The notes: generated by a model from the letters alone, not told the origin. 64,000 nt of DNA from Candidatus Limiplasma sp. (GCA_963675365.2 CAXXVA010000002.1:109899-173898); one strand, 5' to 3'. Counted from the first letter of the stretch, positions 1-58,169 are shown. Numbers and translations are program-made.

Positions 1-146
1 ATACCTCGCACGCTGCCGGTTTTCTTTTCCCCATCTTGCGCTTGGTCAATCCTTGATGTAGCGCTGCTACTACTTCGGATTTCGCAAACACAATCTGAGA
101 AAAAGCAACTCCGGCATCATACAAGGGTTCCGGTCGTCGTTTGCCT
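1..146 (+). repeat. Family-A long palindromic intergenic repeat, copy R1 (left outer arm cut by window edge)
   Basis: Core GATGTAGCGCTGCTACTAC (55-73) and flanks ACGCTGCCGG / ATCTTGCG / GCAAAC / CGGCATCA align with 7 other copies. Right outer arm CGTCGTTTGCCT at 135-146. Confidence 0.75.
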
Positions 147-8956: not shown

Positions 8957-9149
8957 AACAATCACCTCAATAAATACATCTAATAGTATTATAGTGAATG
9001 GAAGCATAAATATCAATCGAAATTGTTTCCCAAGGATAGAGCATATGATATGATACATAGTATCGCTGTAGCGAAGGAATATCTATCGATTTGGAAACAA
9101 TGCTTTATCGAATATGATATACTATAACAAAATGTATTTGAGGTGACCC
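8957..9149. promoter_or_regulatory. AT-rich divergent control region between the two KAP NTPase genes
   Basis: Inverted repeat ATTGTTTCC (9022-9030) / GGAAACAAT (9093-9101). Repeated ATATGATAT motifs. TATACT at 9118-9123 lies 27 nt before ATG 9150. Both genes use a TTGAGGTGA RBS context. Confidence 0.5.
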
Positions 9150-11297
9150 ATGCTTTCCGACCAGCCTATCCAAACCGCAAAGGACGACCTGCTGGGGCGC
9201 ACGGCGTTTGCCGGGCAAATCGCCTCGGCGATGCTTAGCTGCCCGCCGGGCAAGCGCGGCAGCTTTGTGATCGGGCTTTGCGGCAAGTGGGGGTCGGGCA
9301 AGACCTCGGTGATCAATATGGTCACAGAGGCGATGCGGGGCCGGAAGGCCGGAAAGCCGATCCTGATCCAGTTCAACCCCTGGGATTATCCGGCGGAGGA
9401 GCTTTTGCCGGGGCAGCTTTTGCAAACCCTTGCCGACGAACTGCATAAATCGTCCCGCGGGAAAACCCTGAACAAAGCGGCCAGGGCGATGGAGAAGTAC
9501 GCCTCGGCGCTTGAAACCTGCCTGCCGAATTTCAGCTCCGAAACCGTGGCGGAGCTGCGCGGCGCGGCGCCTAAGAAGAAACAAAAAAAGCGCTCCGCGA
9601 CACAGCGCGTGATCAAGCGCCGGAATAAGGTATACAAGCTGCTCAGAAAGCAAAAAAAGAAAATCTACGTCGTGATGGACGATATCGACCGCCTGTCCTC
9701 CCAGCGTATCCGTAACGTATTGCAGCTGGTCAAGGCCGTGGCGGGGTTCCCGCGCTTTGTGTACCTTTTGTCGTTTGACCAGGACGTGGTCGTGGGCGCG
9801 CTGTCCAAGGAGCTGTACGGCGACGGGCGGCAGTACCTGGAGAAGTTCATCCAGGTGCAGTTCGATATCCCCGCGCCCGAGCCCGGCCGCATCCGCGATA
9901 TCCTGATGGCGTATATCACCTCGTGGCTGGAAAGCTACAAGGGCCTCAACTTCGACCGCGCGTACTTTGACGAGGTCGCGCCCTTCCTGTTTGCGCACAT
10001 CCTGAGCATCCGCGACGTGTACCGCTTCATCAATACCTTCCGCGTCCGTTACCAGGCGCTTGGAAACGAGGTCAATTTCGTGGATCTTCTGGCGGTCTCC
10101 GCCATGCAGCTGCACGCGCCCAAGGTACTGCCGTGGATTCAGGCGCACCGGGACGATCTGCTGCGGGGCGGCGGGCTGAACTACCGCAGCGCCGACCAGA
10201 TCAAGAAAAAGCAGTTCAAGGCCGAGCACCGGCGGATGATCCAGTCGCTGGACGAGTATGGCGGCGGCACGCTGCAAGCCCTGATCGGGCACATGTTCCC
10301 GCGCTACGGCAAGAACATTCTGGACGTATACGCCGACGACGCGGACCCGCGCTTTGTGCGCATGCGCCGCATCTGCTGCGAGGAGTTTTTCGACCTGTAT
10401 TTCACCCAGTCCCTCGGAAGCCTGCGCATTACCCAAAAGGAAATCGTCGGCGTCATCCACGAAATGGATGCCGCGCAATTGCGGGCCTATACCGACAGCC
10501 TGACCGGGGAGGAGCACCGCGCCGCGTTTTTAAACCATCTGCCGCATTACCTGGACGAAATTCCGGAAGAACGGCTTTCGCTGTTCTTCCACGAGGTGCT
10601 GTGGCTCAGCCGCCTGCCGGAGAGCAAAAACCCGGCTGACAAGCCCTTCCAGCGCTCGTTTTTCCAGGAGTGCTGCAATACGGCGCTGCGGATACTGTCC
10701 CAGATGCAGCGATACATGGCGGAGGAAAGCCTGAAATCCGCCGTGGAAAACGCTGGCAAAAAGACCCTGCCCATCCTCGTATCGGTGCTGACGTCCGTCC
10801 GCCGGGGCGCGCCCGGCGCGGAGAATGTGCAGCTTGACGAAGAGTTCATTACGGCGCAGCTGCGCCAGCTCATGACCCGGGTGCACGCCGTCGCGCTCAA
10901 GGACAACTGGCTTTTGTCGCACAAGCCTATGCCCGTGCTTGAATACTGGAAGCAGACCGACTTTATGGCCTTCCGCGTATATTTCCAGAAGCTGATGATG
11001 GACGACCTGAACGCTGCGAGGCTGGTATCCGTCCTGACCCAGCGCTTTGACCGGGGCGAGGATATGGAGTACCAGTTCGGCGATATGGACGGCAAGCACG
11101 CGTTTTCCGATCTGTTCCCGCAGGCGGACGCGCGCGACGCCGTACTGCGCCTGAAGGGTACGGAGGCCTTCCGCGCCCTGCCCGAGGACGTGCGGCTGGA
11201 CAGCGTGGCGTTTTCGCTGATGGACAGCTACCTGCACCGCGTATCGCAGGCGGACGTCATGGAAGAATACCCCAAGTGGGTAGAAGAAAATAAATAG
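9150..11297 (+). CDS. KAP-family P-loop NTPase (GC-rich, no membrane insert)
   Basis: GLCGKWGSGKTSVINMV and IYVVMDDIDRL. Lys/Arg-rich linker AAPKKKQKKRSATQRVIKRRNKVYKLLRKQKKK sits where the neighbour has TM helices. Collinear homology to 6791-8956 along the full length. Confidence 0.9.
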   Translation: MLSDQPIQTAKDDLLGRTAFAGQIASAMLSCPPGKRGSFVIGLCGKWGSGKTSVINMVTEAMRGRKAGKPILIQFNPWDYPAEELLPGQLLQTLADELHKSSRGKTLNKAARAMEKYASALETCLPNFSSETVAELRGAAPKKKQKKRSATQRVIKRRNKVYKLLRKQKKKIYVVMDDIDRLSSQRIRNVLQLVKAVAGFPRFVYLLSFDQDVVVGALSKELYGDGRQYLEKFIQVQFDIPAPEPGRIRDILMAYITSWLESYKGLNFDRAYFDEVAPFLFAHILSIRDVYRFINTFRVRYQALGNEVNFVDLLAVSAMQLHAPKVLPWIQAHRDDLLRGGGLNYRSADQIKKKQFKAEHRRMIQSLDEYGGGTLQALIGHMFPRYGKNILDVYADDADPRFVRMRRICCEEFFDLYFTQSLGSLRITQKEIVGVIHEMDAAQLRAYTDSLTGEEHRAAFLNHLPHYLDEIPEERLSLFFHEVLWLSRLPESKNPADKPFQRSFFQECCNTALRILSQMQRYMAEESLKSAVENAGKKTLPILVSVLTSVRRGAPGAENVQLDEEFITAQLRQLMTRVHAVALKDNWLLSHKPMPVLEYWKQTDFMAFRVYFQKLMMDDLNAARLVSVLTQRFDRGEDMEYQFGDMDGKHAFSDLFPQADARDAVLRLKGTEAFRALPEDVRLDSVAFSLMDSYLHRVSQADVMEEYPKWVEENK

Positions 11298-11457
11298 GTA
11301 AACTCCGAATCAATCCCATACATGCCGGTGATCCAATTTCCGCCAACTTGAGCCCGCAAAAACTTTGACGCAGCGCCGCTACGACTTCTATTTCTGCAGG
11401 CCCAATTCGACGAAAATACAATACGCCAGCCTGCATGGGCTTCATTCATCGTTTACC
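11297..11457 (+). repeat. Family-A palindromic repeat, copy R2
   Basis: Core TTGACGCAGCGCCGCTACGACTTC. Outer arms GGTAAACTCCGAAT (11297-11310) / ATTCATCGTTTACC (11444-11457). Fills the whole intergenic space from the KAP stop to the methyltransferase RBS. Confidence 0.8.
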
Positions 11458-11470
11458 AAAGGAGTATATT

Positions 11471-12224: not shown

Positions 12225-12392
12225 ATAGGCAAACGACGCACAAATCCCCTATACGCTGACGGGTATATTTTCGCCATCTTGCGCCGGCAGAATCCTCGAC
12301 GTAGCGCTGCTGCTGCTTCAGATACCGCAACCGCCATCTGTAATAAAATCGACACCATCATCGCACAGGGTCTTTACGCGTCGTTTGCCTAT
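12225..12392 (+). repeat. Family-A palindromic repeat, copy R3
   Basis: Core TCGACGTAGCGCTGCTGCTGC. Perfect 15-bp outer arms ATAGGCAAACGACGC (12225-12239) / GCGTCGTTTGCCTAT (12378-12392). Starts 2 nt after the methyltransferase stop. Confidence 0.85.
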
Positions 12393-12670
12393 GTGGTGTC
12401 TAGTATCATGGATATACGATAAATTCCGAGGTTTTTACTGCATACCCGTTTCAAGCGCTATAAGGCAGTTTGGCGATTGCTTCAACAAGCCGCCTTTATT
12501 CAATCATCTTCACATCCCTTATCTTCGCGTGGGTCAAATACATGGGAAACAGCAGTTCCGAAGCTATAACACAAGGGTTATTGGCGTGATCGGTTTTGCA
12601 TTCTCTGAATGCGCGGCCGTCTGTTTGTCCGGTGTTTTCCTTGCTACGCGCAGCTTTCCACGCCTTTGTC

Positions 12671-12692
12671 CTTTAACCTCGCGCGGGTCATA
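12671..12692 (+). repeat. 22-nt repeat CTTTAACCTCGCGCGGGTCATA (second copy at 20251-20272)
   Basis: 21 of 22 identical to 20251-20272. Both copies are preceded within about 80 nt by the shared 9-mer TGTCCGGTG. Confidence 0.7.
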
Positions 12693-12700
12693 TTGTTGTC

Positions 12701-12785
12701 AAATATTCACCCGATGAATATTTTTATGAAAAACGCTTGACAGGGGAACGGACTGTGATTATAATGTGAATGTGAATTCATATTC
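12701..12785 (+). promoter_or_regulatory. Consensus sigma-70-type promoter flanked by two palindromic candidate TetR operators
   Basis: -35 TTGACA (12737-12742), 17-nt spacer, -10 TATAAT (12760-12765). Perfect IR AAATATTCA-N5-TGAATATTT (12701-12723) upstream. 18-bp near-palindrome GAATGTGAATTCATATTC (12768-12785) at the expected transcription start. Confidence 0.65.
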
Positions 12786-12805
12786 ATGGCCTTAATGAAC
12801 GGGAG

Positions 12806-16842: not shown

Positions 16843-17213
16843 GATCTGCGGTGTCAGCAGCGGACGGGAAGGGGCATCATTTACAAACGCGTAAACTCAA
16901 CCCCTTCCCACCCTTGCTTCCTAGCATCTCAAACCTTCTGAACAAGCTGATTCCTAATACTCAGGATCACTTAATCTGCGGAGAAGGTGTGTCGGATTTT
17001 CGCATCACTTACGAACGAGTAAGCTCCGCTCAACCCTCCATCCGTTTTATTGTCGCAGCCCGCACTTCCCTTTGGCTGCTCTGAAAAACGTCCCAACCGA
17101 AACTCCTTTTGCGCTTCGCGCAAGCACCACACAGGGTGCCCAGTCGTTCGGCTGCCTAGCATCTCAAGCCTTCTGAACAAGCTGACTCCTAATACTTAGG
17201 ATGGCTTGATCTG
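16843..17213 (+). repeat. Family-B modular repeat, tandem array (two units plus the start of a third)
   Basis: Units start at GATCTGCGGTGTCAGC (16843), AATCTGCGGAGAAGGTGTGTCGG (16972) and GATCTG (17208). Each carries GCATCAYTTACRAACG...CTCAACCC. The 59-nt module CCTAGCATCTCAARCCTTCTGAACAAGCTGAYTCCTAATACTYAGGAT...ATCTG occurs at 16920-16978 and 17155-17213. Confidence 0.8.
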
Positions 17214-17548: not shown

Positions 17549-18928
17549 ATGAATAGTCTTCAGAGATTTCAAATTCTCGGGCTATATGGTGACAGAGATG
17601 TTGATATTACGATTAATGACAATACCGTAATATTTGTTGGGGAAAACGGCTTAGGAAAAACCACGGTTTTAAAATATATGTTTTCTGTTCTTTCAGGTGT
17701 TTATTCTCATATGCCGACACATAAGTTCGACAAGATTGTTATTACTATTAGCAATAAAGAGTACACCTTATCGAGCAATCAAGCAAAAACGGCAAAGGTA
17801 ATTAACCCAAATTCAATTAGGCGTTTGCCTGTTCAATTTCGCAGAGAATTATTTAAACTGGATAGAGAAGATGGAATTTCAATTAATGATGTTCTTAATA
17901 TTGCTAATAAATTGAATTATCCTGTGAAAATGATTCTTGATATACTTCAATATAACTCAGAGAACAACAATAATGATATTCATCAGATTGAAATGAACTT
18001 TGATGAAAGTCATATTACACAAATTCCTAATGCTCTTGGGGCAAGAGTTTTATATCTTCCAACTTATAGACGAATTGAAGAAGACTTATCCTATATCATT
18101 CAAGAACGACAGAATTTTCGGGACCCTGAAGAGCTTCAAACTATATTTGAATTTTCAGAAAGAGGTAGCCATAGCTATATAGAATTAGTCGAATTTGGTA
18201 TGCAGGATGTAAAAGATAAAATTAAAAAGAAATGCTCAGAATTGAGCAGATATTCAGAGGCAAGCTTTAAAGAATTAGCTTATTTAAATTTAGGGGACGT
18301 TATAGATAAGAAATATCGAATGTCGGAACAGACATTTACATCAGTGCAAGATAGCGATATAGAGAAGTTTAAATTATGTGTATCACGAAATAATAAAAAT
18401 ATGCTTAATAATAAGCAAATACAATTATTGACTCAGATTCTGCATGGAAATAAACCACAAGCAAATGAAACACAAAGACAGATTCTTCTATATTATTTTA
18501 GGAATTTACTTGCACTTCAAGATGAATTAGAGAAAAAAGAAAAGGGTATTTCTGATTTTTGTAGTATGTGTAGCGAGTATCTTTCGCTTTCAGATAAGAT
18601 TATGATCTATGATATATCAAAATTCGATGTGCAAATATTGAAACAAAGAAGCAATGAGCCAATAGATATGAGCGATTTGTCTTCAGGAGAAAAACAAATA
18701 GTATCCCTATTTAGCCATCTGTATTTGCAAGACAAAGATGAGTTATTTGTTATAATTGATGAACCAGAGCTATCTCTTTCAGTACCTTGGCAAAAGCGGT
18801 TTTTATGTGATATAAGGAATGGCTCATCTTGCACAGGACTTATTGTTGCTACACACTCTCCGTTTATATATGATAATAATCTTTTTAAATATGCACATGG
18901 GCTAAAAGAATACTTTATTAACGGGTGA
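17549..18928 (+). CDS. ariA: ABC-type (SMC/RecF/OLD-like) ATPase, AriA-like
   Basis: FVGENGLGKTTVLK Walker A, LSSGEKQIVSLF signature, LFVIIDEPELSLS Walker B, ATHSPF H-loop, and a long helical insert between the lobes. AAGGAG RBS. AT-rich codon usage. Confidence 0.8.
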   Translation: MNSLQRFQILGLYGDRDVDITINDNTVIFVGENGLGKTTVLKYMFSVLSGVYSHMPTHKFDKIVITISNKEYTLSSNQAKTAKVINPNSIRRLPVQFRRELFKLDREDGISINDVLNIANKLNYPVKMILDILQYNSENNNNDIHQIEMNFDESHITQIPNALGARVLYLPTYRRIEEDLSYIIQERQNFRDPEELQTIFEFSERGSHSYIELVEFGMQDVKDKIKKKCSELSRYSEASFKELAYLNLGDVIDKKYRMSEQTFTSVQDSDIEKFKLCVSRNNKNMLNNKQIQLLTQILHGNKPQANETQRQILLYYFRNLLALQDELEKKEKGISDFCSMCSEYLSLSDKIMIYDISKFDVQILKQRSNEPIDMSDLSSGEKQIVSLFSHLYLQDKDELFVIIDEPELSLSVPWQKRFLCDIRNGSSCTGLIVATHSPFIYDNNLFKYAHGLKEYFING

Positions 18929-18932
18929 AGTT

Positions 18933-19880
18933 ATGAGCATGATATCTATTCATAAATCTGCCCTAGAAGAGATTATTGTACCATATCATTTCTTTTTGAC
19001 GGCACAAACCAAAGATGCGAAAAAGTTATTTGGCTTTGTTGAAGGGATAAATGATATTTCATATTATAATAATCATATTAGTCGGGTTATTAAGGATTAC
19101 GAGTTAATACTAATTGAAGCGGGTGAGCCAGGAAATAAAAGTAAGGTACTTCAGCTAATTGATATAATTGATTGGAATAGGTATCCTGAAAAACAGACAG
19201 CTTTTTTTGTGGATAGAGATCTAGATGATTTTTTTAATGGACAAAAGGATAGAGCAAATTTATATATAACAGATGATTGCTCTATTGAGAATTCAATTGT
19301 TAGTACATATACACTTAATAGAGTTATAAAAGAATTATGCAATATAAATTTATATGAAAAGGAAAATGAGAAACTATTCCAGCTGTTTTTATGTGGTGTA
19401 AACGAATTAGCGAAAGCGGTTTCGCTAATTAGTGCAGCATATATTTGGTTGCAAAGAAAAGGAGATAAACCATCATTCAATTGCATTGAGATTAAAGATG
19501 TCTTATGCATGGAAAAATGCAATGTGAAGACAATGAATAGTACGGATATTGTTTCATATATTGAAAGAAAATGGAATACCAAAATTATGATTGATGAAGT
19601 TTTATCTGTCGAAGTAGAGTTCCAAGATAAAAATATTGACTTGAGATATATTCGAGGGAAGTACTTAATGTGGTATTTTGTGAATTTTATCAATAACTTC
19701 CATGAGTCTTGTCAAGAATACTTTCCGCGCTTATCAAAACCACGGTCAATAAGAAAGCTAGATGTAAATAATGCTATTAATGATTTAGGGGTGCGCTCAA
19801 AAACGCCAGAGACATTGGTCGATTTTATAAGTAGAACGTACCTGATGTTTATCTCAGAAGCATGTGCAACATCTGTTTAG
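18933..19880 (+). CDS. ariB: DUF4435/TOPRIM-like nuclease, AriB-like
   Basis: FVEGINDISYYN (TOPRIM Glu motif), GNKSKV, FFVDRDLDDFF (DxD), CSIENS. Starts 5 nt after the ATPase stop. Confidence 0.75.
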   Translation: MSMISIHKSALEEIIVPYHFFLTAQTKDAKKLFGFVEGINDISYYNNHISRVIKDYELILIEAGEPGNKSKVLQLIDIIDWNRYPEKQTAFFVDRDLDDFFNGQKDRANLYITDDCSIENSIVSTYTLNRVIKELCNINLYEKENEKLFQLFLCGVNELAKAVSLISAAYIWLQRKGDKPSFNCIEIKDVLCMEKCNVKTMNSTDIVSYIERKWNTKIMIDEVLSVEVEFQDKNIDLRYIRGKYLMWYFVNFINNFHESCQEYFPRLSKPRSIRKLDVNNAINDLGVRSKTPETLVDFISRTYLMFISEACATSV

Positions 19881-26517: not shown

Positions 26518-26679
26518 CTGGTTTGCCTCCCTCTTGCTCAGGGCAAACGCTGATCAATCCCCCGCACACGGACGATTGCGTTTTCACCGCCGCGCAAGGT
26601 ATTTATTCATCGTTTACCTGGGTATTATACCATATTCGGCTGTGTTGTGTATGGTTGAAGATTCAGGTTTTACAGGCGC

Positions 26680-37666: not shown

Positions 37667-37839
37667 TTATTTCATACGAACCCAAACCTTTTTCACCCCT
37701 ATCTTGCGTCGTCTTTTACCCGCGCTCTGTGTCGCGAGATCTCGACATAGCGCCGCTATGCCTTCGCTCTCGCTTCTTGACCGCGAATAAAATACTCGCA
37801 ATCTATCCGGCGAAAAACTTCGGATTCGCATGAAATATT
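37667..37839 (+). repeat. Family-A palindromic repeat, divergent copy R4a
   Basis: ATCTTGCG, core TCGACATAGCGCCGCTATG. Outer arms TTATTTCATACGAA (37667-37680) / TTCGCATGAAATAT (37826-37839). Confidence 0.65.
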
Positions 37840-37912
37840 CTAGGCTTAGGCAGAGATGTGGGGAAGGGTCTCCCGGATTTGCTGGCAATGAGCACGATCA
37901 ATCGTAAACAGC

Positions 37913-38075
37913 AGGCAAACGCTGGGGGGAGACCATGAGAGATGACGAATCGGATTTTTGTCGGATTGGGTTTGCGCGGCTCGAAGTCGTAGCAGCGCTA
38001 CGTCGAGGGCAGAGCGGGCCCAAGCTGGCGGAAATCAGAACGTCAGATCGCGTGGGCTATCATCAGCATTTGCCT
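37913..38075 (-). repeat. Family-A palindromic repeat, copy R4b (inverted relative to R4a)
   Basis: Core GAAGTCGTAGCAGCGCTACGTCGA. Outer arms AGGCAAACGCT (37913-37923) / AGCATTTGCCT (38065-38075). Confidence 0.8.
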
Positions 38076-50368: not shown

Positions 50369-50743
50369 ATGAGCGCAAAAAACAGGTCCTTTATCTCCGG
50401 GTTTTTCCACGCGGTGGACGGCGTAAAAGAAGCGCTGAAAACCGAGCGCAGCATGCGCATCCACGCCGTTACGGCCGTACTGGTGGTCGTTTTCGGGTTT
50501 CTGCTCCATATCAGCCTTTGGGAGTGGATCGTCTGCGTGACGCTGTTCGGGCTGGTGATGGGAGCGGAGCTCCTGAATACCGCCCTTGAACACACCGTGG
50601 ATATCTGCTGCCCAAACCTGGACCCCCGCGCCAAGCGCGTCAAAGACGTCGCCGCCGCCGCGGTGCTTACGGTGTCGCTCGCGGCAGGGATCGTGGGATT
50701 ATTGATTTTCGTGCCTAAAGTATGGCATGCAGTGTTTGGGTAA
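50369..50743 (+). CDS. dgkA: Diacylglycerol/undecaprenol kinase
   Basis: 124 aa, three TM helices, GAELLNTALEHTVD motif. Confidence 0.85.
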   Translation: MSAKNRSFISGFFHAVDGVKEALKTERSMRIHAVTAVLVVVFGFLLHISLWEWIVCVTLFGLVMGAELLNTALEHTVDICCPNLDPRAKRVKDVAAAAVLTVSLAAGIVGLLIFVPKVWHAVFG

Positions 50744-50900
50744 ATAATGCCAAAACCCCCGATACGCTGCCGGGTTGATTTTCCTCATCTTGCGCCCGCG
50801 GGGGTTTCGACGTAGCGCTGCTACGACTTCAACCCCCGCAAACGCAACCTGTGAAAAATCCACCTCGGCATCGCACAGGTTCTTCCGGCATTATTTACCC
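50738..50900 (+). repeat. Family-A palindromic repeat, copy R5
   Basis: Core TCGACGTAGCGCTGCTACGACTTC. Perfect 14-bp outer arms GGGTAAATAATGCC (50738-50751, includes the dgkA stop) / GGCATTATTTACCC (50887-50900). Confidence 0.85.
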
Positions 50901-51021
50901 AAGTGGAATACCGTTATTGGTTTATCATATTTGATAAATGTGGAGAATTTGATGAGCTTCAAATCATAGCCAATTTTCTGTAATGTTGTATGTTTATATA
51001 GTAATGCAGAAGGAGCATATT

Positions 51022-52080
51022 ATGTCAGATACATTAATAGATATTTTGAATAAAGCATTTGAGGAACATATTAATAAACTTAAAAAGCAAGGTGTTTCCG
51101 ATGAGGAAGTTTTAGTAAGAGAACGAGAATTTGACTTTACAGAAGTGCTAGAGACAATGATACAAACTGCTACAGATAATACGGTTCAATTCTTTCAGAG
51201 CACTATGTATGAACGTGTGATGGAGGAACGAGCTACTATAGATGAGTTTATTGCACATCAGGATCAAATATGGGGTAAAGGTTTTGTAGCATCAGAAGCA
51301 ATGTATATTATTGCTGTCGAATCTGCAGAGGCATATGGAGAGTATTTGGCAGATTTACCGAATAACCAAAAAGATGATAAAAAATATCGATACCTTGCAT
51401 TACGAGAACTTCATGGACGTTCTTGTCAAGTGTTTCTTGAGATACTTTGCCTTATGAAATCAGGATTTGCTGATGGTGCATATGCACGATGGCGTACTAT
51501 GTATGAGCTGAGCATTGTAGCGGAGTTTATTTGGAACAATGAAGAATACGTTGCTCAAGCATTCATTCAAGCATCTGAAGGCAATGACAACTGGTACAAC
51601 TGGGCAAAAGAAGCACCATGCTTCAAATCACAAAAAAAGAATATAACTTTTTCTGCTATTGAATCTAAGTGTAATCTATTAACTGATGATTGGAAAAAAC
51701 AACACGAATTGGCACATAAAATTGTTCACGCATCGCCACAAGCCACATTTAAGCGTTTAGGTATTTTCAAACCAAATGGCAATATAATAGCAGGTCATAC
51801 TGACTATGGTATAGTTAGTGCAGCCGAGAATTCTGCGATTTCGCTTTCAAAAATCACAACATTATTCCTTACTCTAATACCATATGGGGACGGTTTAGTG
51901 CACTCACGATGTTTGAGTAAATGGGTAAAAGAAATAAAAAAACATTATTATAATGCTGAAGATAATAGTTTTACAAATGCTGAACCGAAAAATCCACAAT
52001 TGATGGGAATCAAACTAAATAGTACCGGAGAAAACACGCATGCCAATTCCACGGGTTCGCACCGAGTAGATTGCGATTGA
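51022..52080 (+). CDS. AT-rich orphan all-alpha protein (possibly DUF5677-like), function unknown
   Basis: AAGGAG-N7-ATG 51022. 352 aa. AT-rich codons until about 52040. The last 12 codons (ANSTGSHRVDCD) are GC-rich and encoded by the outer arm of repeat R6. Confidence 0.7.
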   Translation: MSDTLIDILNKAFEEHINKLKKQGVSDEEVLVREREFDFTEVLETMIQTATDNTVQFFQSTMYERVMEERATIDEFIAHQDQIWGKGFVASEAMYIIAVESAEAYGEYLADLPNNQKDDKKYRYLALRELHGRSCQVFLEILCLMKSGFADGAYARWRTMYELSIVAEFIWNNEEYVAQAFIQASEGNDNWYNWAKEAPCFKSQKKNITFSAIESKCNLLTDDWKKQHELAHKIVHASPQATFKRLGIFKPNGNIIAGHTDYGIVSAAENSAISLSKITTLFLTLIPYGDGLVHSRCLSKWVKEIKKHYYNAEDNSFTNAEPKNPQLMGIKLNSTGENTHANSTGSHRVDCD

Positions 52081-52196
52081 TTTTGGTTTCTGACGAAGAA
52101 CGAGGCCGCAGTAGTAGCAGAGCTACGTCAAGGCCGAAGTGATGAAGTAAGGAGCCAAAAGCGGCGCAAGATACCGGTGCGAAACCGTGGAATTGG
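52043..52196 (-). repeat. Family-A palindromic repeat, copy R6
   Basis: Core GCAGTAGTAGCAGAGCTACGTCAA. 22-bp outer arms CCAATTCCACGGGTTCGCACCG (52043-52064) / CGGTGCGAAACCGTGGAATTGG (52175-52196), 21 of 22 complementary. Confidence 0.85.
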
Positions 52197-52199
52197 TAT

Positions 52200-53210
52200 T
52201 TAAATAGTCATGAATTCCCTGAACTCCCGCATAATCCCCATCCCGTCCGGGTAGTGCGCCGCGAACTGTGGTACTGCGTGGCTGGGGAAGGAGTTGCCCT
52301 CAATGAAGCAGGGGCCTTGGTTGGTCACGGCCACGTCCCAGGCGATGTAGCGCATCTGGGGTACCCTTTGGGCGGCGCGAAGGCACATGTCCATCGCTTC
52401 CTTGAAGTAGGGGACGGTAAAGCCGATGATCTTAGTGCCGGTCATCGGGTGGGTTTCGTAGGTATCGCCGGCCTTGTCCGCGCCGACGGTCAGGAGCGTT
52501 CCGGTCAAAAGGTCCACGCGGGCGGCCATGCCTCCGCAGTCCACGTTATCCATCACCTTGCCGTTGCCGATGCGCAGGAACGCGTACACCACGCCCTGCT
52601 TTTTGTCGCCCAGCAGGGTGGCGATGCGGATGGTGTTCACCGAGCTCGGGCAGAGCTCCATCATTTTGTTGTGCTGGATCAGGCGTTCTTCCAGAATGCC
52701 GATTTGCCCTTTGAGCAGTTCCTTGCGGAAATCCTCCTCGCGGCTTTCAAAATCGGCCTTCGTGTAGTGTTGAATGCCCACGCCGGAGGATCCCTCCAGG
52801 GGCTTTGCGATGATATCGGGATTCTCGCTTAAGAACGCTTTCAGCTCGTTCAGCGTGGTAGCTTCGGAAAACTTCATCCAGTTGCGCTTGATATCATCCT
52901 TGAACAGGGTGTTGAACTCTGTTTTGTCGTCAAAAAAGTGCCAATAGGCTTTGTCGTTCATTTCGCGCACGATGGTATTGCTCAAGCCCCGCGTGATCAC
53001 GGTCTTTTTCTGCGCGGCGTTCAGGCGGTACATCTCGGCGATCTTGTAGTCCATGTAGCCCGCGTTATAAATCAGGGCGCATTTGAGCAGATCGAAATAC
53101 AGCCACAGGCGGGGTTTGCCGCTGCGCTCCACGAGAAAATCCATGGTTTTTCCGAAGCGCTTGAAATCCATGCGGAAAACGCGCTTGAAGAAGAATACTA
53201 ACCTACTCAT
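52200..53210 (-). CDS. ATP-grasp family protein (sugar-transfer-associated type)
   Basis: Start at MSRLVFFF (AGGAGG RBS, ATG 53208-53210). GSSGVGIQ and CFIEGNSFP motifs. Confidence 0.7.
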   Translation of the reverse strand: MSRLVFFFKRVFRMDFKRFGKTMDFLVERSGKPRLWLYFDLLKCALIYNAGYMDYKIAEMYRLNAAQKKTVITRGLSNTIVREMNDKAYWHFFDDKTEFNTLFKDDIKRNWMKFSEATTLNELKAFLSENPDIIAKPLEGSSGVGIQHYTKADFESREEDFRKELLKGQIGILEERLIQHNKMMELCPSSVNTIRIATLLGDKKQGVVYAFLRIGNGKVMDNVDCGGMAARVDLLTGTLLTVGADKAGDTYETHPMTGTKIIGFTVPYFKEAMDMCLRAAQRVPQMRYIAWDVAVTNQGPCFIEGNSFPSHAVPQFAAHYPDGMGIMREFREFMTI

Positions 53211-53244
53211 GAAGTCCTCCTGAACGAACGAATATAGAAACACA

Positions 53245-53411
53245 ATAGGCAAATGATGAGGAAAGCACTTGTGCGATGGCGAACCGGATTTTTGTCAGGT
53301 TGGGTTTGCGTGGGCCGCAGTAGTAGCAGCGCTACGTCAAGGCTCCCGCAAGCGCAAACTGGCGGAAATACGGTCGATAGCGCGCAGGGGATTGCGTCAG
53401 CGTTTGCCTAT
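53245..53411 (-). repeat. Family-A palindromic repeat, copy R7
   Basis: Core GCAGTAGTAGCAGCGCTACGTCAA. Outer arms ATAGGCAAA (53245-53253) / TTTGCCTAT (53403-53411), the latter overlapping the ychF stop. Confidence 0.85.
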
Positions 53412-54505
53412 ACGTTAAAGCGAATGAGAGTGACGTCGCCGTCCTTCATGATATAGTCCTTGCCCTCGCTGCGCACCAGGCCCTTTTCCTTGCAGGCGGC
53501 CATGCTGCCCTGCTCGATCAGCTGCTCGTAGGGCACGACCTCCGCGCGGATGAACCCGCGTTCGAGGTCGGTATGGATTTTGCCCGCGGCCTGCGGAGCC
53601 TTGGTGCCGTTTTCGATCGTCCAGGCGCGGCACTCGTCCTCGCCGACGGTGAAAAACGAAATCAGACCTAAAAGCCGGTAGCTCGCGCGGATCAGCCGGT
53701 CCAGCCCGCTCTGGCCGATGCCCAGGTCGTCCAGGAACATCTGTTTTTCTTCGGCGTCCATCTGGCCGATCTCTTCCTCAATGCGCGCGGAAATGGTGAA
53801 CACCTCCGCGCCTTCTCTGACGGCGATTTCCTGCACGCGCCTGACCAGCGGCAGCTCGGCGATCTCCTTGCCGATATCGTCTTCGGATATGTTGGCGGCG
53901 TAGATCACGGGCTTGTCGGTGAGCAGAAACCAGCCGCGCAGGACCTCTTTTTCGTCGTCGCTGACCTGAAAGGTGCGCGCGGGCTTGTCGCTTTCCAGAT
54001 GGGCAAGCAGACGCCTGCCCAGATCGGCTTCGGCGGCGTATTTCTTTTCCCCGGTCCTCACCAGTTTTTCGGCTTTTTCGGTGCGTTTTTGCACGGTTTC
54101 CAGATCGGCAAAGATCAGCTCCAGATTGATTTCTTCAATATCGCGGGCGGAATCCACCGAGCCGTCGACGTGGATGACGTTCTCGTCTGCAAAGCAGCGC
54201 ACCACGTGCACGATGGCGTCCACCTCGCGGATGTGGGACAAAAACTTGTTGCCCAGCCCCTCGCCCTTGCTCGCGCCCTTCACCAGTCCGGCGATATCCA
54301 CGAAGGTCACCGAGGCGTACACCCGGCTTTTGGGGTTGTACATTTGGATCAGCTTGTCAAGCCGCTTGTCCGGCACGGGCACGATGCCCGTATTGGGCTC
54401 GATGGTGCAAAACGGGTAGTTGGCCGCCTGCGCTCCCGCCTTGGTGATGGCGTTGAACAGCGTCGATTTTCCCACGTTCGGCAGCCCTACGATTCCCAGT
54501 TTCAT
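53408..54505 (-). CDS. ychF: Ribosome-binding ATPase YchF
   Basis: GIVGLPNVGKSTLFNA, DIAGLVKGAS, and a C-terminal TGS-like domain. 365 aa. Confidence 0.95.
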   Translation of the reverse strand: MKLGIVGLPNVGKSTLFNAITKAGAQAANYPFCTIEPNTGIVPVPDKRLDKLIQMYNPKSRVYASVTFVDIAGLVKGASKGEGLGNKFLSHIREVDAIVHVVRCFADENVIHVDGSVDSARDIEEINLELIFADLETVQKRTEKAEKLVRTGEKKYAAEADLGRRLLAHLESDKPARTFQVSDDEKEVLRGWFLLTDKPVIYAANISEDDIGKEIAELPLVRRVQEIAVREGAEVFTISARIEEEIGQMDAEEKQMFLDDLGIGQSGLDRLIRASYRLLGLISFFTVGEDECRAWTIENGTKAPQAAGKIHTDLERGFIRAEVVPYEQLIEQGSMAACKEKGLVRSEGKDYIMKDGDVTLIRFNV

Positions 54506-54585: not shown

Positions 54586-56382
54586 TCAGTCCTCTAAATA
54601 GCTGTATTGCGCTTCCACCAGCGTACGGTAATGACCGCCGGGGATGTTCATCAGTTCGTCGTGGGTGCCGGCTTCGGCGATGCCGCCGTTCTGTACGACC
54701 ATAATGCGGTCCGCCTGGCGGATGGTGGACAGCCGGTGCGCGATCACAAAGCTGGTACGGCCTTTTAAGAGCACGCCAAGCGCTTCCTGGATCAGCATTT
54801 CGGTGCGCGTATCGATGGAGGAGGTCGCTTCGTCCAATATCAGGATGCGCGGGTCGTTTAACAGCGCGCGGGCGAAGGAGATCAGCTGCTTCTGTCCGGT
54901 GGACAGGCTCGCCCCGCGCTCGCCCATTTCGGTTTGATAGCCGTGCCGCAGGCTCATGATGAAATCATGCACGCGCACGGCCTTGCACACGGCGATCACC
55001 TCGTCCTCGGTGGCGTCCAGCCGCCCGTAGCGGACGTTATCCAGTATCGTGCCTGAAAAGATAAAGCTGTCCTGCATCATCACGGACATCTGCCGTCTGA
55101 GCGATTGCAGCTTCACGTCGCGCACGTCGTGCCCGTCAATCCGTATCGCGCCGCCGGTTACGTCGTAAAAGCGGCTGATAAGGCTGACGATGGTACTCTT
55201 GCCCGCGCCCGTCGGCCCGACCAGCGCGATGGTCTGCCCCGGCTCTACGGTGAAGCTGACGTCTTTGAGCACGGGCTGTTTTTTGTCGTAGCTGAAATCC
55301 ACACGGTCGAACGCAATTCGGCCCTCGATGGGCGGCAGCTCCGGGATATCGTCCCGCTTGTCATACACCAGCGGTTTGGTATCCATGATCTCAAAAATCC
55401 GCTCGATGGACGCCATCGCCGCCAGAATATCGTTGTAAAAGGTGGATACGTTGTTAATCGGTTCCCAGAACCGCCCAAGGTACCACAATATCGCCAGCAG
55501 ATCGGCCAGCACCAGGCCGTCCACGCTGCCCGCCGGGCCCATGAAAATCAGGCCCGCGACGTACACGCCCGCCGTGCCGATCGCGCTTAAGGTATCGATG
55601 AACGGCCAGAACAGGTTGTTGATGCCCACGGCCTTCATCCAGCTCTTCTTGATGTCCATGTTGGTGTCGTCAAACAGCTCTTTGTTGCGCTTCTCGCGCA
55701 CGAAGGACTGGGTGACGCGCATCCCGGCCAGGCTTTCGTGCAGGTAGCCGTGCATGGTCGAGGTTTTCAGCCGCACGATCTGCCAGGCTTTGCGCATCCG
55801 GCGTCTGAGAAGCATGATGATAAGCCCCAGTATGGAAAGCGAACACAGCGCCACCAGCGTCAGCTTCCAGTTGAGCACGAACATGATGATCACCAGCAGC
55901 ACCAGCGTCAGGCAGTCCACCAAAACGTTTACGATGCCGTTGGTAAACAGGTTGTTGAGGCGGTTGACGTCGTTGATGACGCGCACCATGATCTTGCCCG
56001 CCGACCGGTTGTCAAAAAACGGCAGCGACAGCGACTGGATGTGATCGAACAGGTCCTGCCGCAGGGTGGCGATCGCCTTGCGGCCCGCGACGTTCATGTT
56101 GCGGATGCGCAGATGCAGGCAGAAGCCGCCCACCAGCACCGAGATCACCGTGCCCGCCAGCAGGAGCGGGATGGCCGCGTAATTGCCGTCCGTCAGCGCG
56201 CCCACGGCGCGGCTGAGCAGATAGGGGTTTATAAGGCTCGCGCCCGATACGACGACCATCAGCAGCAGCGAGACGATCATTTCTTTTTTATACGGTTTCA
56301 GGTATTGAAGCATCCGCAGGAACAGCCCTTTGTCAAACGGCGCTTCCATCACTTCGTCGTCCAGGTTGCGCAGGCGCGCCAT
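54586..56382 (-). CDS. ABC exporter, fused permease/ATPase (heterodimer partner 2)
   Basis: Six TM helices, then GPTGAGKSTIVSL, LSTGQKQLISFARA, ILILDEATSSID. Confidence 0.9.
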   Translation of the reverse strand: MARLRNLDDEVMEAPFDKGLFLRMLQYLKPYKKEMIVSLLLMVVVSGASLINPYLLSRAVGALTDGNYAAIPLLLAGTVISVLVGGFCLHLRIRNMNVAGRKAIATLRQDLFDHIQSLSLPFFDNRSAGKIMVRVINDVNRLNNLFTNGIVNVLVDCLTLVLLVIIMFVLNWKLTLVALCSLSILGLIIMLLRRRMRKAWQIVRLKTSTMHGYLHESLAGMRVTQSFVREKRNKELFDDTNMDIKKSWMKAVGINNLFWPFIDTLSAIGTAGVYVAGLIFMGPAGSVDGLVLADLLAILWYLGRFWEPINNVSTFYNDILAAMASIERIFEIMDTKPLVYDKRDDIPELPPIEGRIAFDRVDFSYDKKQPVLKDVSFTVEPGQTIALVGPTGAGKSTIVSLISRFYDVTGGAIRIDGHDVRDVKLQSLRRQMSVMMQDSFIFSGTILDNVRYGRLDATEDEVIAVCKAVRVHDFIMSLRHGYQTEMGERGASLSTGQKQLISFARALLNDPRILILDEATSSIDTRTEMLIQEALGVLLKGRTSFVIAHRLSTIRQADRIMVVQNGGIAEAGTHDELMNIPGGHYRTLVEAQYSYLED

Positions 56383-58169
56383 CAGGCTTCACCACCCTTC
56401 GGGGAGGCGGTAAAGTCGCGGGTCTGGTCGCGGAATAACTCGGCGTAGATACCGTTAAGCTGCAAAAGCTCCCGGTGCGTACCGCGCTCGGCGATGCGCC
56501 CGTCCTTGAGCATGATGATCTGGTCGGCCTTGCGCACCGAGGAAATGCGGTGCGCGATAATGAACGTGGTGCGCCCTTTGAGCACGCTTTGCAGCGCCGA
56601 TTGAATCTCGGCCTCGGTTTCCATGTCCACGGCGGAGGTCGCGTCGTCCAAAATGAGGATGCTGGGATCGTAGAGGATCGCCCGGGCCAGCGCCAGGCGC
56701 TGCTTCTGCCCGCCGGACAGGCCCAGCCCGCGCTCGCCGATGACCGTATCGTACCCGTGGGCGCTTTCCAGAATAAAATCCTCCGCCTGCGCGGCGCGCG
56801 CCGCGGCCTCCACCTGCGCCTGCGTGGCGTCCGGACGACCGAAGCGGATGTTTTCGGCAATGGTTTCGGAAAACAGGAAGGTTTCCTGCATCACCACGCC
56901 GATGCTGTTGCGCAAATCCTTCAGATCCTGCCTGCGCACGTCCACGCCGTCCACCTTCAGGCTGCCGTCGGCCACGTCGTAGTAGCGGCCAAGCAGCGTG
57001 ACCAGCGAGGTTTTGCCCATGCCTGTCGCGCCCATCACGGCGATCACCTGCCCTGGCTTGACGTGCAGGTCGATGTCCTTGAGCACGGTGGTATCGTTGT
57101 ACTGGAAGCTGAGGTCTTCAAAGTCCACGCGGCCTTCGCGGGTTTTCGGAGCCTCGGTCTCCTTGGGGTTTTTGATTTTTGAACCCAGGTTCATATAGTA
57201 GATCAGCTTCTCCGAGGATACAAAGCCGTTGGTCGCCATGTTAACGAACATCGCCACCTGCCGCATGGGGGCCATCAGCATCCACACAAAGCCCGCCGCG
57301 CCGACCAGTGTGCCGATGTCCAGCAGCCCCTGCTGCAGCATGATGGAGCCCGAGATCATCAGCACGGGAATGGCGAGGCGCGCGGTCGCGTCCAGCAGCG
57401 GTAGGTAAACGCTCCAGATTTTCGTGCCGCGCAGGTTGTAGTTGAGCACCTTCTGGTTTTCGATCTCAAACATCGCTTTTTCGTAGTCTTCCCGGGCAAA
57501 GGCTTTTACCAGGCGCACGCCGGCGATGTTTTCCTGCGTCCGGGTGTTCAGCACGGCGTTTTGCTCGCGCACGGCCACGTGCGCCGGGCGGATATTGTGG
57601 CGCAGCCGCCACGCCGCCAGGGCGATGAACGGGCTGAAGCACAGCATGATCAGCGTCAGCCGCCAGCTCATCAGGCTCATGCCGACGAGCGCGAGCACGA
57701 ACATCATCGCGTTTTCCACAATGCCCAGCACGCCGTTGACGATCAGCATGCGCACACCCTCGATATCGCCGGTCATCCGGCTCATGATTTCGCCGATGTG
57801 ATGGGTATCGTAAAACGCATAGGAGAACTTCTGCATATGGCCGTACAGGCCCGTACGCAGATCGTAGACTACGGACTGGGAGACGTCTTCGATCATCATG
57901 CCGCGGACGTACATCATCACACTGCGCACGGCGGTGACGCCGATCAGGATGCCGCAAAGCTGCAAAAGAAGGGCCATGTCGCGGCTTGGGAGCACGTCGT
58001 TGATCACCGCTTTTGTGATGTAGGGTACGATCATGCGCAGCGCCGTTAAAAAAACGATCAGAACTATGCAGGCAATCAGTTTGCCTTTGTAGGGTTTCAG
58101 CCACTGGAAGAATCGCCGGTAGGTATCCATTTCATCCTCCGGAAACAGGGTTGGAATCCACTGTTTCAA
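56382..58169 (-). CDS. ABC exporter, fused permease/ATPase (heterodimer partner 1)
   Basis: GATGMGKTSLVTL, LSGGQKQRLALARA, ILILDDATSAVD. Its stop overlaps the start of the downstream partner. Confidence 0.9.
   Translation of the reverse strand: MKQWIPTLFPEDEMDTYRRFFQWLKPYKGKLIACIVLIVFLTALRMIVPYITKAVINDVLPSRDMALLLQLCGILIGVTAVRSVMMYVRGMMIEDVSQSVVYDLRTGLYGHMQKFSYAFYDTHHIGEIMSRMTGDIEGVRMLIVNGVLGIVENAMMFVLALVGMSLMSWRLTLIMLCFSPFIALAAWRLRHNIRPAHVAVREQNAVLNTRTQENIAGVRLVKAFAREDYEKAMFEIENQKVLNYNLRGTKIWSVYLPLLDATARLAIPVLMISGSIMLQQGLLDIGTLVGAAGFVWMLMAPMRQVAMFVNMATNGFVSSEKLIYYMNLGSKIKNPKETEAPKTREGRVDFEDLSFQYNDTTVLKDIDLHVKPGQVIAVMGATGMGKTSLVTLLGRYYDVADGSLKVDGVDVRRQDLKDLRNSIGVVMQETFLFSETIAENIRFGRPDATQAQVEAAARAAQAEDFILESAHGYDTVIGERGLGLSGGQKQRLALARAILYDPSILILDDATSAVDMETEAEIQSALQSVLKGRTTFIIAHRISSVRKADQIIMLKDGRIAERGTHRELLQLNGIYAELFRDQTRDFTASPKGGEA

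Follow-up and report, generated by a model that had tools for sequence, protein, structure and literature searches.

The 64,000-nucleotide stretch of a Candidatus Limiplasma-like (Christensenellales) chromosome analyzed here in full (GCA_963675365.2 CAXXVA010000002.1:109899-173898; hereafter, the window) carries nine copies of a mobile, non-coding hairpin repeat of about 163 bp, a foldback element resembling the enterobacterial repetitive intergenic consensus (ERIC) and miniature inverted-repeat transposable elements (MITEs). The element is inserted at gene junctions, forms its hairpin on only one of the two strands (hereafter F; the complement is denoted R), preserves this hairpin through compensatory changes, retains conserved loops, abuts stop codons with a distinct polarity, and decays by central deletion. 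We consider it fairly probable that it is a non-autonomous, non-coding, MITE/ERIC-like mobile repeat with a single-strand-specific core.

An earlier note, made from the sequence of the window, had listed eight copies (denoted c1 to c8 along the window). A covariance model (CM) built on 20 copies and used to score the window with the filters off recovers exactly these eight at the coordinates claimed for them, together with one overlooked remnant at 26541-26619 (minus strand). The 13-nt apex, with at most one mismatch allowed, occurs six times in the window compared to 0.03 occurrences expected from shuffles, and the four arm pairs quoted in the note are indeed complementary (15/15, 14/14, 21/22, and 12/14 positions). 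The statement that all copies share a central 16-mer and a set of inner blocks does not hold: all six blocks are exact in c6 only, and the exact 16-mer is present in three copies. Copies c4 and c7, which lack several of the inner blocks, form a distinct subtype (type B), and the other full copies belong to type A. The ends AGGYAAAYG and CRTTTRCCT pair as terminal inverted repeats (TIRs), and the inverted symmetry spans the whole element. The element is well below 500 bp, the open reading frames (ORFs) inside it are only the tail ends of flanking genes, and dozens of copies are found in related genomes.

Each copy forms one long hairpin, as proposed, but not a symmetric palindrome, given that only one strand folds well. 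The strand given below for each copy is F, which reads GTAGCAGCGCTAC, the reverse complement of the strand quoted originally, and which folds into a single near-continuous hairpin of 60-70 pairs. At the apex of F, a stem of 5-6 bp carries an AGC triloop (GUAGC-AGC-GCUAC); beneath it, a U.U pair and a G-C pair precede a 3x3 purine loop (GAA opposite GAA or GAG), and lower on the hairpin there is a tandem G.A loop with AGAU on both arms (5'-YAGAUUG with 5'-CAAGAUR). These unpaired motifs are the most conserved portion of the element, and on R the conserved mismatches turn into pyrimidine-pyrimidine mismatches. For the eight window copies, the predicted energies are -60 to -103 kcal/mol for F vs -33 to -76 kcal/mol for R; all 88 elements tested, which cover every lineage sampled, are more stable as F (mean, -84 vs -61 kcal/mol), and F folds better in 22 of 24 copies from Geobacter. 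Compared to dinucleotide-shuffled controls, F of c8 yields z = -7.0 with both RNA and DNA parameters, whereas R behaves like the shuffles (z = -1.2 and +0.2).

The statistical test of covariation, for which the note had called, strongly supports the hairpin. In an alignment of 49 type A copies from the window and related genomes, compared with a null of 500 shuffles, standard pairs occupy 92.8% of the cells vs 81.1 +/- 0.4% in the shuffles, both sides change in 55 of the 65 pairs, and there are 391 double-change cells vs 112 +/- 10; on each of the five covariation measures, none of the 500 shuffles reached the observed value. When partner columns were slid by 1-3 positions, pairing fell to about 40%. 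The two kinds of wobble are highly unequal on F, with 423 G.U vs 61 A.C cells (249 vs 57 at pairs with a Watson-Crick consensus); deamination in situ, biased to the non-template or leading strand, would be expected to produce the opposite asymmetry, given the orientation of the elements.

The same signature is apparent when copies at the same chromosomal site in different genomes are compared. Both partners of a pair changed in 87 cases vs 38 expected under random placement (permutation P < 0.0005), with the pair kept in 65 of the 87, and single changes kept the pairing in 100 cases and broke it in 90. Stems evolve faster than unpaired positions (substitution rate, 0.188 vs 0.107), and whole-element divergence is 0.08-0.25 compared to 0.21-0.45 at 4-fold sites of the flanking genes. 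These same-site comparisons indicate that copies are constrained or homogenized in place and, with the family-wide covariation, bear out the suggestion of the note that selection or conversion maintains the stem. Judged from sequence, this pattern could result from selection, from conversion of one copy by another, or from template switching inside quasi-palindromes; the lasting G.U pairs argue against template switching alone.

Comparison with loci from related genomes (denoted L and a number) reveals filled and empty sites. Copy c8 (53247-53409, plus strand, type A) lies in the spacer of the ychF-ATP-grasp operon, with F antisense to the operon, and provides the TAG stop codon of ychF; an exact look-up of the protein encoded by the ychF gene of the window yielded no record. 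The two genes are adjacent in essentially all of 80 metagenomic relatives, with or without repeats; in most of these, the spacer consists of 12-40 nt and contains only the ribosome-binding site, so that the c8 site is empty. Among these relatives and the window, the 163-bp c8 was found only in the window, L111, L112, and L115/116, and in L109, a Limiplasma metagenome-assembled genome (MAG) locus with about 80-84% DNA identity to the window, it has collapsed to 13 and 15 nt of its ends. Copy c2 (11296-11458, minus strand, type A; 118 bits in the CM search) is located between the stop codon of the KAP NTPase gene and the ribosome-binding site of the methyltransferase gene, its first G completing the TAG stop of the former. 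In four relatives (L193-L196, including the genome of L109), these two genes overlap or are 4 nt apart, and the CM detects no element at this site; thus, c2 is a lineage-specific insertion between two coupled genes. Copy c3 (12227-12390, minus strand, type A; 134 bits), 3 nt past the methyltransferase stop codon, is likewise absent from L193-L196. At its position, a clear intrinsic terminator follows the methyltransferase gene in relatives (L193 4760-5015 and L194 4754-4960); in the window, c3 takes this place, and no terminator is recognizable (interval compared, 12393-12805).

Decay by central deletion is apparent from remnants with different breakpoints in the window (26541-26619), L109, and L048. 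The window remnant (about 79 nt; 37.6 bits, E = 2e-7) retains about 35 and about 30 nt of the 5' and 3' arms, respectively, the apex having been lost through an internal deletion; this is one of the few copies in which F is sense to both flanking genes. Head-to-tail copies without a spacer are present in L047 (3031-3357) and L016 (5175-5461), and those in L047 are near-identical, which points to tandem duplication rather than separate insertions. Elsewhere, L026 (3150-3600) and L092 (6580-7340) have 98% identical flanks and carry one and two copies, respectively, along with an additional, smaller palindromic repeat, AGAGGCAAGCGCC...GCGCTTGCCTCT. In L109, the ATP-grasp gene downstream of the collapsed c8 matches as two tblastn pieces (1586-2595; 230 and 95 amino acids), suggesting a frameshift.

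The observation that copy ends sit on or near stop codons extends to the larger set of 96 elements, for which genes were called heuristically from ORF length and the GC content of third codon positions (GC3): the nearest stop codon is at a median distance of 4 nt, with a mode of -2 (TAG completed by the first bases of the element), and the median distance to the nearest start codon is 80 nt. The neighboring genes are co-directional for 52 of the 96 elements, convergent for 14, and divergent for 10. A stop codon is found within -45 to +12 nt of 56 element ends, of which 51 are the 3' end of F (p = 1e-10, an optimistic value because orthologous copies were counted separately); in this arrangement, F is antisense to the abutting gene, and it is the weakly folding R strand that enters the mRNA. 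Between convergent genes, precise abutment of the stop again involves the 3' end of F, and between co-directional genes, F is antisense rather than sense by 41 to 11. On the F strand, the flanks have a negative GC skew by 59 to 33; as a means of separating the effects of replication from those of transcription, the skew is suggestive and confounded. We found no terminator-like site at any element in the interval 50600-53500 and no T-run after the copies, and neither promoter-like nor terminator-like signals are above chance at the elements.

The core of the element extends far beyond Limiplasma. A 22-nt apex pattern matched at least 110 loci in a genome collection; among the matches listed are Candidatus Limiplasma, other Christensenellales and Clostridia MAGs, Alloclostridium, Schwartzia (Negativicutes), a Bradymonadales MAG with dozens of copies (many at contig ends), Desulfosarcina/Desulfobacteraceae and other Deltaproteobacteria, and the gammaproteobacterium Wenzhouxiangella. 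The apex, the GAA/GAA loop, and the tandem G.A loop recur across Clostridia, Negativicutes, Deltaproteobacteria, Bradymonadales, and the gammaproteobacterium. In the cross-phylum alignment obtained with MAFFT and RNAalifold, only the apex could be aligned owing to differences in arm length, and this alignment was kept out of the statistics. In a full-text search, the apex turned up in one paper, on Geobacter metallireducens, in which 24 "predicted short RNA elements" without a name (Gmet_R1001-R1024) are aligned; the published alignment contains the same apex along with the same CCATCT / GATCTG..AAAATC module, and the R orientation was listed as located 5' of genes (Aklujkar et al., 2009). These multicopy intergenic elements, with the apex G(R)CGTAGCGCTGCTACG(C)C, likewise fold into a hairpin over their whole length, and their apex stems covary (GTACC..GGTAC, GTGGC..GCCAC), whereas they are shorter (about 113 nt) and lack the outer arms of about 25 nt (AGGYAAACG...CGTTTRCCT) that characterize the Limiplasma type. 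The published account is a list, with no structure, strand analysis, evidence of mobility, or function given (Aklujkar et al., 2009). The scan of viral contigs yielded a single contig with the element, probably of chromosomal origin, and in a BLAST search no plasmid was found to carry it, so that a phage or plasmid vehicle is unsupported.

The Bradymonadales MAG (PWKZ loci, for example, L015, L024, L046, and L068) contains dozens of near-identical elements of about 190 bp with the same apex and three variants of the TIRs, CCTCAATCC..., CCATAATCG..., and CCCTAATTCC...; this variety looks like a recently active MITE. Here, the module is enclosed in classical TIRs, and 4-6-bp direct repeats flank four of the seven complete copies. 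Outside GG...CC, the Limiplasma type has two bases on each side that are palindromic rather than direct (TA/TA, TG/CA, CA/TG), with a palindrome match at 62 of 98 positions vs a direct-repeat match at 35 of 98, a pattern that either a TA duplication or no duplication at all could leave; beyond the element boundaries, there is no conserved flank.

Several observations weigh against the reading of the element as a mobile repeat that acts through its folded single strand. The Limiplasma type, with ends of the form YR-GG...CC-YR, shows no visible target-site duplication, and the window copies are only about 61% identical, unlike the products of a recent burst. No mobilizing enzyme was found among the window ORFs or at the sampled loci: transposase, integrase, Y1, and reverse transcriptase domains are all missing from the approximately 55 ORFs of the window, ORF clustering across the 110 loci listed yielded no neighboring protein family shared across lineages other than common transporter-like families, and no cognate insertion sequence (IS) with the same ends was detected in the window or recurrently among these loci. 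The Bradymonadales direct repeats point to a double-strand mechanism of the DDE type over transposition of single-stranded DNA (ssDNA). The slower-than-neutral evolution of same-site copies and the conserved loops suggest a host function or a role as RNA rather than purely selfish DNA, although gene conversion among copies could mimic such slow evolution. The gene calls behind the orientation statistics are heuristic and the counts are inflated by orthologous copies, and, as far as sequence goes, ssDNA and RNA would leave the same signal. Given that the direct repeats argue for a DDE-type mechanism in at least the Bradymonadales lineage, we commit ourselves only to a MITE/ERIC-like element with a single-strand-specific core.

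For this MITE/ERIC-like element, a tentative mechanism can be outlined. With the hairpin present on a single strand, the active form would have to be single-stranded, namely, the folded F strand, which a trans-encoded enzyme or factor might recognize at the apex and the G.A loops. Insertion would be orientation-specific, next to a TAG/TAA-like sequence. Alternatively, the polarity might arise by loss of the opposite orientation, in which a hairpin of -80 kcal/mol could be harmful in the mRNA or hairpins on the lagging-strand template could be deleted. The survivors of such counter-selection or instability would be the copies with the weakly folding strand in the mRNA and with F on the side of negative GC skew. 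Long palindromes, being fragile, may on occasion provide the breakpoints for gain and loss of foreign AT-rich genes. As the folded form, we lean tentatively, short of outright preference for it over all else, to ssDNA, favoring it over RNA, which appears doubtful, because F is rarely the sense strand of transcription, no promoter is evident, and the fold is equally significant with DNA parameters. A more far-reaching, and rather speculative, possibility is that the apex and the G.A-loop module are the recognition core of an undescribed class of mobile elements that would spread as folded ssDNA, or as RNA copied back in the manner of a bacterial short interspersed nuclear element (SINE), with a fixed polarity at stop codons in at least 4-5 phyla, the one-strand hairpins serving also as fragile sites that capture defense-type AT-rich genes.

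In behavior, the element is closest to ERIC and hairpin MITEs, and its kin by sequence are the unnamed Geobacter elements of 2009. The alternative offered in the note, an ERIC/REP-like element at gene 3' ends (REP, repetitive extragenic palindrome) or a recombination site for accessory genes, is settled largely toward the former, considering that the element is non-coding, multicopy, intergenic, hairpin-forming, insertion-polymorphic, and stop-abutting. ERIC, also known as intergenic repeat units (IRU), is a 127-bp imperfect palindrome of Enterobacteriaceae and Vibrionaceae that is intergenic, multicopy, non-coding, and found in either orientation, the mobilization of which is not understood and which has been argued to be under structural constraint. 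The window element is unrelated to it in sequence and differs in its cross-phylum tip, variable ends, single folding strand, and polar placement at stop codons. With hairpin MITEs, such as Correia elements (the Neisseria miniature insertion sequences, NEMIS) and Chunjie of Geobacter uraniireducens, the element shares small size, lack of coding capacity, TIRs, a very stable predicted hairpin, insertion into operons without destroying them, and the existence of filled and empty sites; Chunjie is reportedly AT-rich, with 21-bp TIRs and 9-bp direct repeats. In contrast to the window element, MITEs conserve their ends and not the center, and the Limiplasma type shows no clear target duplication, and no cognate IS was found for it in the window or at the sampled loci. 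The palindrome-associated transposable element (PATE), derived from IS200/IS605, fits in strand specificity, polarity, and lack of duplication, but has separate subterminal hairpins at each end, no TIR, and insertion on the 3' side of a fixed target of 4-5 nt, whereas the window element forms one unbroken hairpin, possesses TIRs, and revealed no target preference beyond T-A(G/A). What sets the element apart from the known kinds is the inverted conservation, with the tip and loops conserved across phyla and the ends lineage-specific, the one-strand fold, and the near-absolute polarity with respect to stop codons.

Among the rival explanations, that in which F is a structured RNA accounts for many of the same data. 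F would act as a small or antisense RNA present in many copies, or it would signal the processing or termination of transcripts that enter genes from downstream, with the apex and G.A loops bound by a conserved protein or RNA and the DNA copies spreading secondarily. The covariation, the conserved G.U positions, and the purine-rich internal loops are all as expected of an RNA, as are the stronger conservation of loops than of stems in same-site orthologues, the slower-than-neutral evolution, and the conservation across phyla; furthermore, the authors of the Geobacter study annotated their elements as short RNAs. However, DNA too forms stable G.T and tandem G.A pairs and yields a z-score just as extreme (-7), and the usual transcript is the poor folder, with F antisense in 51/56 stop-abutting and 41/52 co-directional cases. 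Apart from the lack of promoter-like or terminator-like signals above chance and of a conserved outside flank, there is no corresponding Rfam family: Rfam 15 produced no hit at the gathering score in the window, nothing relevant at E <= 10 for its copies, and nothing relevant at E <= 1 for copies of 8 other lineages. On balance, we find the RNA reading unlikely.

A lower probability yet attaches to a system composed of REPINs, hairpins formed by paired REP sequences, and REP-associated tyrosine transposases (RAYTs), in which the apex would serve as the REP-like target of a Y1 HUH transposase whose gene is present once, at another location in the genome. The F apex, GAAGTAGTAGC-AGC-GCTAC, contains what we take to be GTAG followed by a hairpin, as in REP sequences, and the single-strand-specific fold, the lack of target duplication in the Limiplasma lineage, the long vertical persistence, and the orientation bias also agree with the biology of these long-lived hairpin repeats. 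REPINs, though, keep their two arms and vary the center, whereas here the center is kept and the arms vary; no RAYT gene was found in the window or at the sampled loci, with no Y1_Tnp domain among the window ORFs and none recurrent near copies, and the Bradymonadales copies have flanking direct repeats. We therefore regard this kind of system as improbable.

Integron attC sites are imperfect palindromes defined by structure, the folded strand of which is the substrate of recombination, is antisense to the upstream ORF, and abuts the ORF stop. An attC-like cassette system, in which a site-specific recombinase shuffles genes between repeats by acting on a folded-strand site, would thus share with the window element the greater conservation of structure than of sequence, the one folding strand, and the logic of polarity. 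Nevertheless, the core sites RYYYAAC (R'') and GTTRRRY (R') are missing on either strand in all 49 copies (0/49), no integrase domain and hence no adjacent intI gene was found among the window ORFs, and the orientations are mixed, unlike the co-oriented arrays formed by attC sites and Vibrio cholerae repeats (VCRs). Furthermore, c2 and c8 are inserted within operons, and the neighbors are core genes: ATP-grasp, ychF, and methyltransferase genes are syntenic in relatives that have no repeats there. The note had judged all three bracketed genes to be compositionally atypical by eye, and, for two of these, this does not hold. The methyltransferase (GC 0.57, GC3 0.75) and ATP-grasp (0.56, 0.79) genes are similar in composition to the neighboring genes, and the methyltransferase neighborhood UPF0014-KAP-MTase-TetR-ABC is conserved and repeat-free in four relatives; bracketing of these two genes is accounted for by independent insertions into adjacent junctions.

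Only the c6-c7 interval shows the predicted polymorphism of gene presence, with breakpoints in the repeats, and only its gene is atypical (GC 0.36, GC3 0.26). Copy c6 (50738-50900, minus strand, type A; 165 bits) overlaps dgkA and provides its TAA stop codon, and c7 (52041-52198, plus strand, type B; 60.6 bits) is 1 nt from the ATP-grasp stop codon; between the facing 5' ends of their F strands lies an AT-rich (36% GC) DUF5677 gene (50901-52040, plus strand), the ORF of which extends 38 nt into c7. Orthologues of c6 are present in L109 and L112 and truncated in L111. The gap between the convergent dgkA and ATP-grasp genes holds differing, unrelated sets of AT-rich genes in the window, L109, L111, L112, and L116, that is, in five genomes, and in a more distant relative without repeats it contains one ordinary gene (GC 55%) and no AT-rich island. 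On the c6 side, the window, L109, and L112 have the island breakpoint where c6 ends, and L111 has it within the outer arm of c6; on the other side, it lies past a complete c7 in the window and L116, inside c7 in L109, where the outer arm is AT-rich, near the c7 apex in L112, and after 32 nt of the inner arm in L113/L114, with c7 absent from L111. Such breakpoints would be expected of cassettes. The facing F 5' ends, common to the c6/c7 and c4/c5 pairs, fit the notion that long palindromes act as fragile sites. AT-rich islands are accompanied by repeats in 6 of 8 cases vs 2.1 expected; all six represent one locus in related genomes and hence provide no independent evidence of an association, and the two other AT-rich islands of the window, at 6.8-9.1 and 17.5-19.9 kb, have no copy of the hairpin repeat nearby. 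In view of all this, we consider the cassette system very improbable.

The remaining alternatives can be dismissed briefly: a duplex palindrome for a dimeric DNA-binding protein or a restriction-modification system, which has no single-stranded form, finds some resonance in the restriction-type appearance of the apex AGCGCT and of GCAGC but is hardly credible because it predicts neither the conserved mismatches (AGAT on both arms, GAA opposite GAA), nor the covariation of the Geobacter apex stems, nor the excess of G.U over A.C; and chance palindromes, intrinsic terminators, and promoter-bearing small RNA genes are rejected by the shuffle statistics, the lack of a T-run, and the lack of a promoter signal, respectively.

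Hairpin repeats of the REP, ERIC, and MITE kinds are common, and their function and mobility are mostly not understood; three properties of the present element make the question tractable. The conservation of a tip of about 25 nt and of two purine-purine loops from Clostridia to Deltaproteobacteria, while the stems drift in a compensatory manner, suggests a specific partner molecule; the fold on one strand only implies a single-stranded active form; and the near-absolute polarity at stop codons constrains the mechanism of insertion. In addition, the presence of the element in cultivable Geobacter makes experiments on the folded strand feasible. The repeats are also of consequence for annotation, as sources of stop codons, interruptions of operons, substitutes for terminators, and points at which metagenome assemblies break.

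Of the nine window copies, six have F on the minus strand (c1-c4, c6, and the remnant) and three on the plus strand (c5, c7, and c8). Copy c1 (1-146, minus strand, type A) is cut by the start of the window and scores 109.5 bits as a truncated match (F, -60.2 kcal/mol vs R, -32.7 kcal/mol). Copy c4 (37674-37831, minus strand, type B; 43 bits) is located 8 nt past the stop codon of a HerA-like gene; its predicted energies are -84.0 kcal/mol for F vs -50.8 kcal/mol for R over the span 37667-37839, and -74.5 vs -43.0 kcal/mol over the CM coordinates. Copy c5 (37913-38075, plus strand, type A; 138 bits; F, -84.2 vs R, -56.1 kcal/mol) is 18 nt upstream of a metallophosphoesterase gene. Copies c4 and c5 point their F 5' ends toward one another and are separated by 73-81 nt (37840-37912 or 37832-37912, depending on the c4 end chosen); c6 and c7 have the same geometry but enclose the AT-rich island, whereas the gap between c4 and c5 contains no insert.

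Other features of the window are AT-rich or repetitive without being part of the family. A second KAP-family NTPase gene (6791-9058, minus strand; 33% GC) separates the UPF0014 gene from the GC-rich KAP gene resident at this locus; the matching gap is only about 80-240 nt in L193-L196, which identifies this gene as an acquired insertion. A direct repeat (54800-54945 and 56614-56759, within 54586-58169), considered as a possible repeat element, proved to reflect two adjacent paralogous ABC transporter genes (ABC_membrane and ABC_tran domains). The interval 17549-19880 is a two-gene AT-rich island (about 32% GC) that encodes an AAA_15/AAA_21 ATPase followed by a DUF4435 protein, a pair that we presume to resemble the AriA/AriB defense pair of PARIS; just upstream of this island are two 63-nt direct repeats (16916-16978 and 17151-17213) that are 89% identical.

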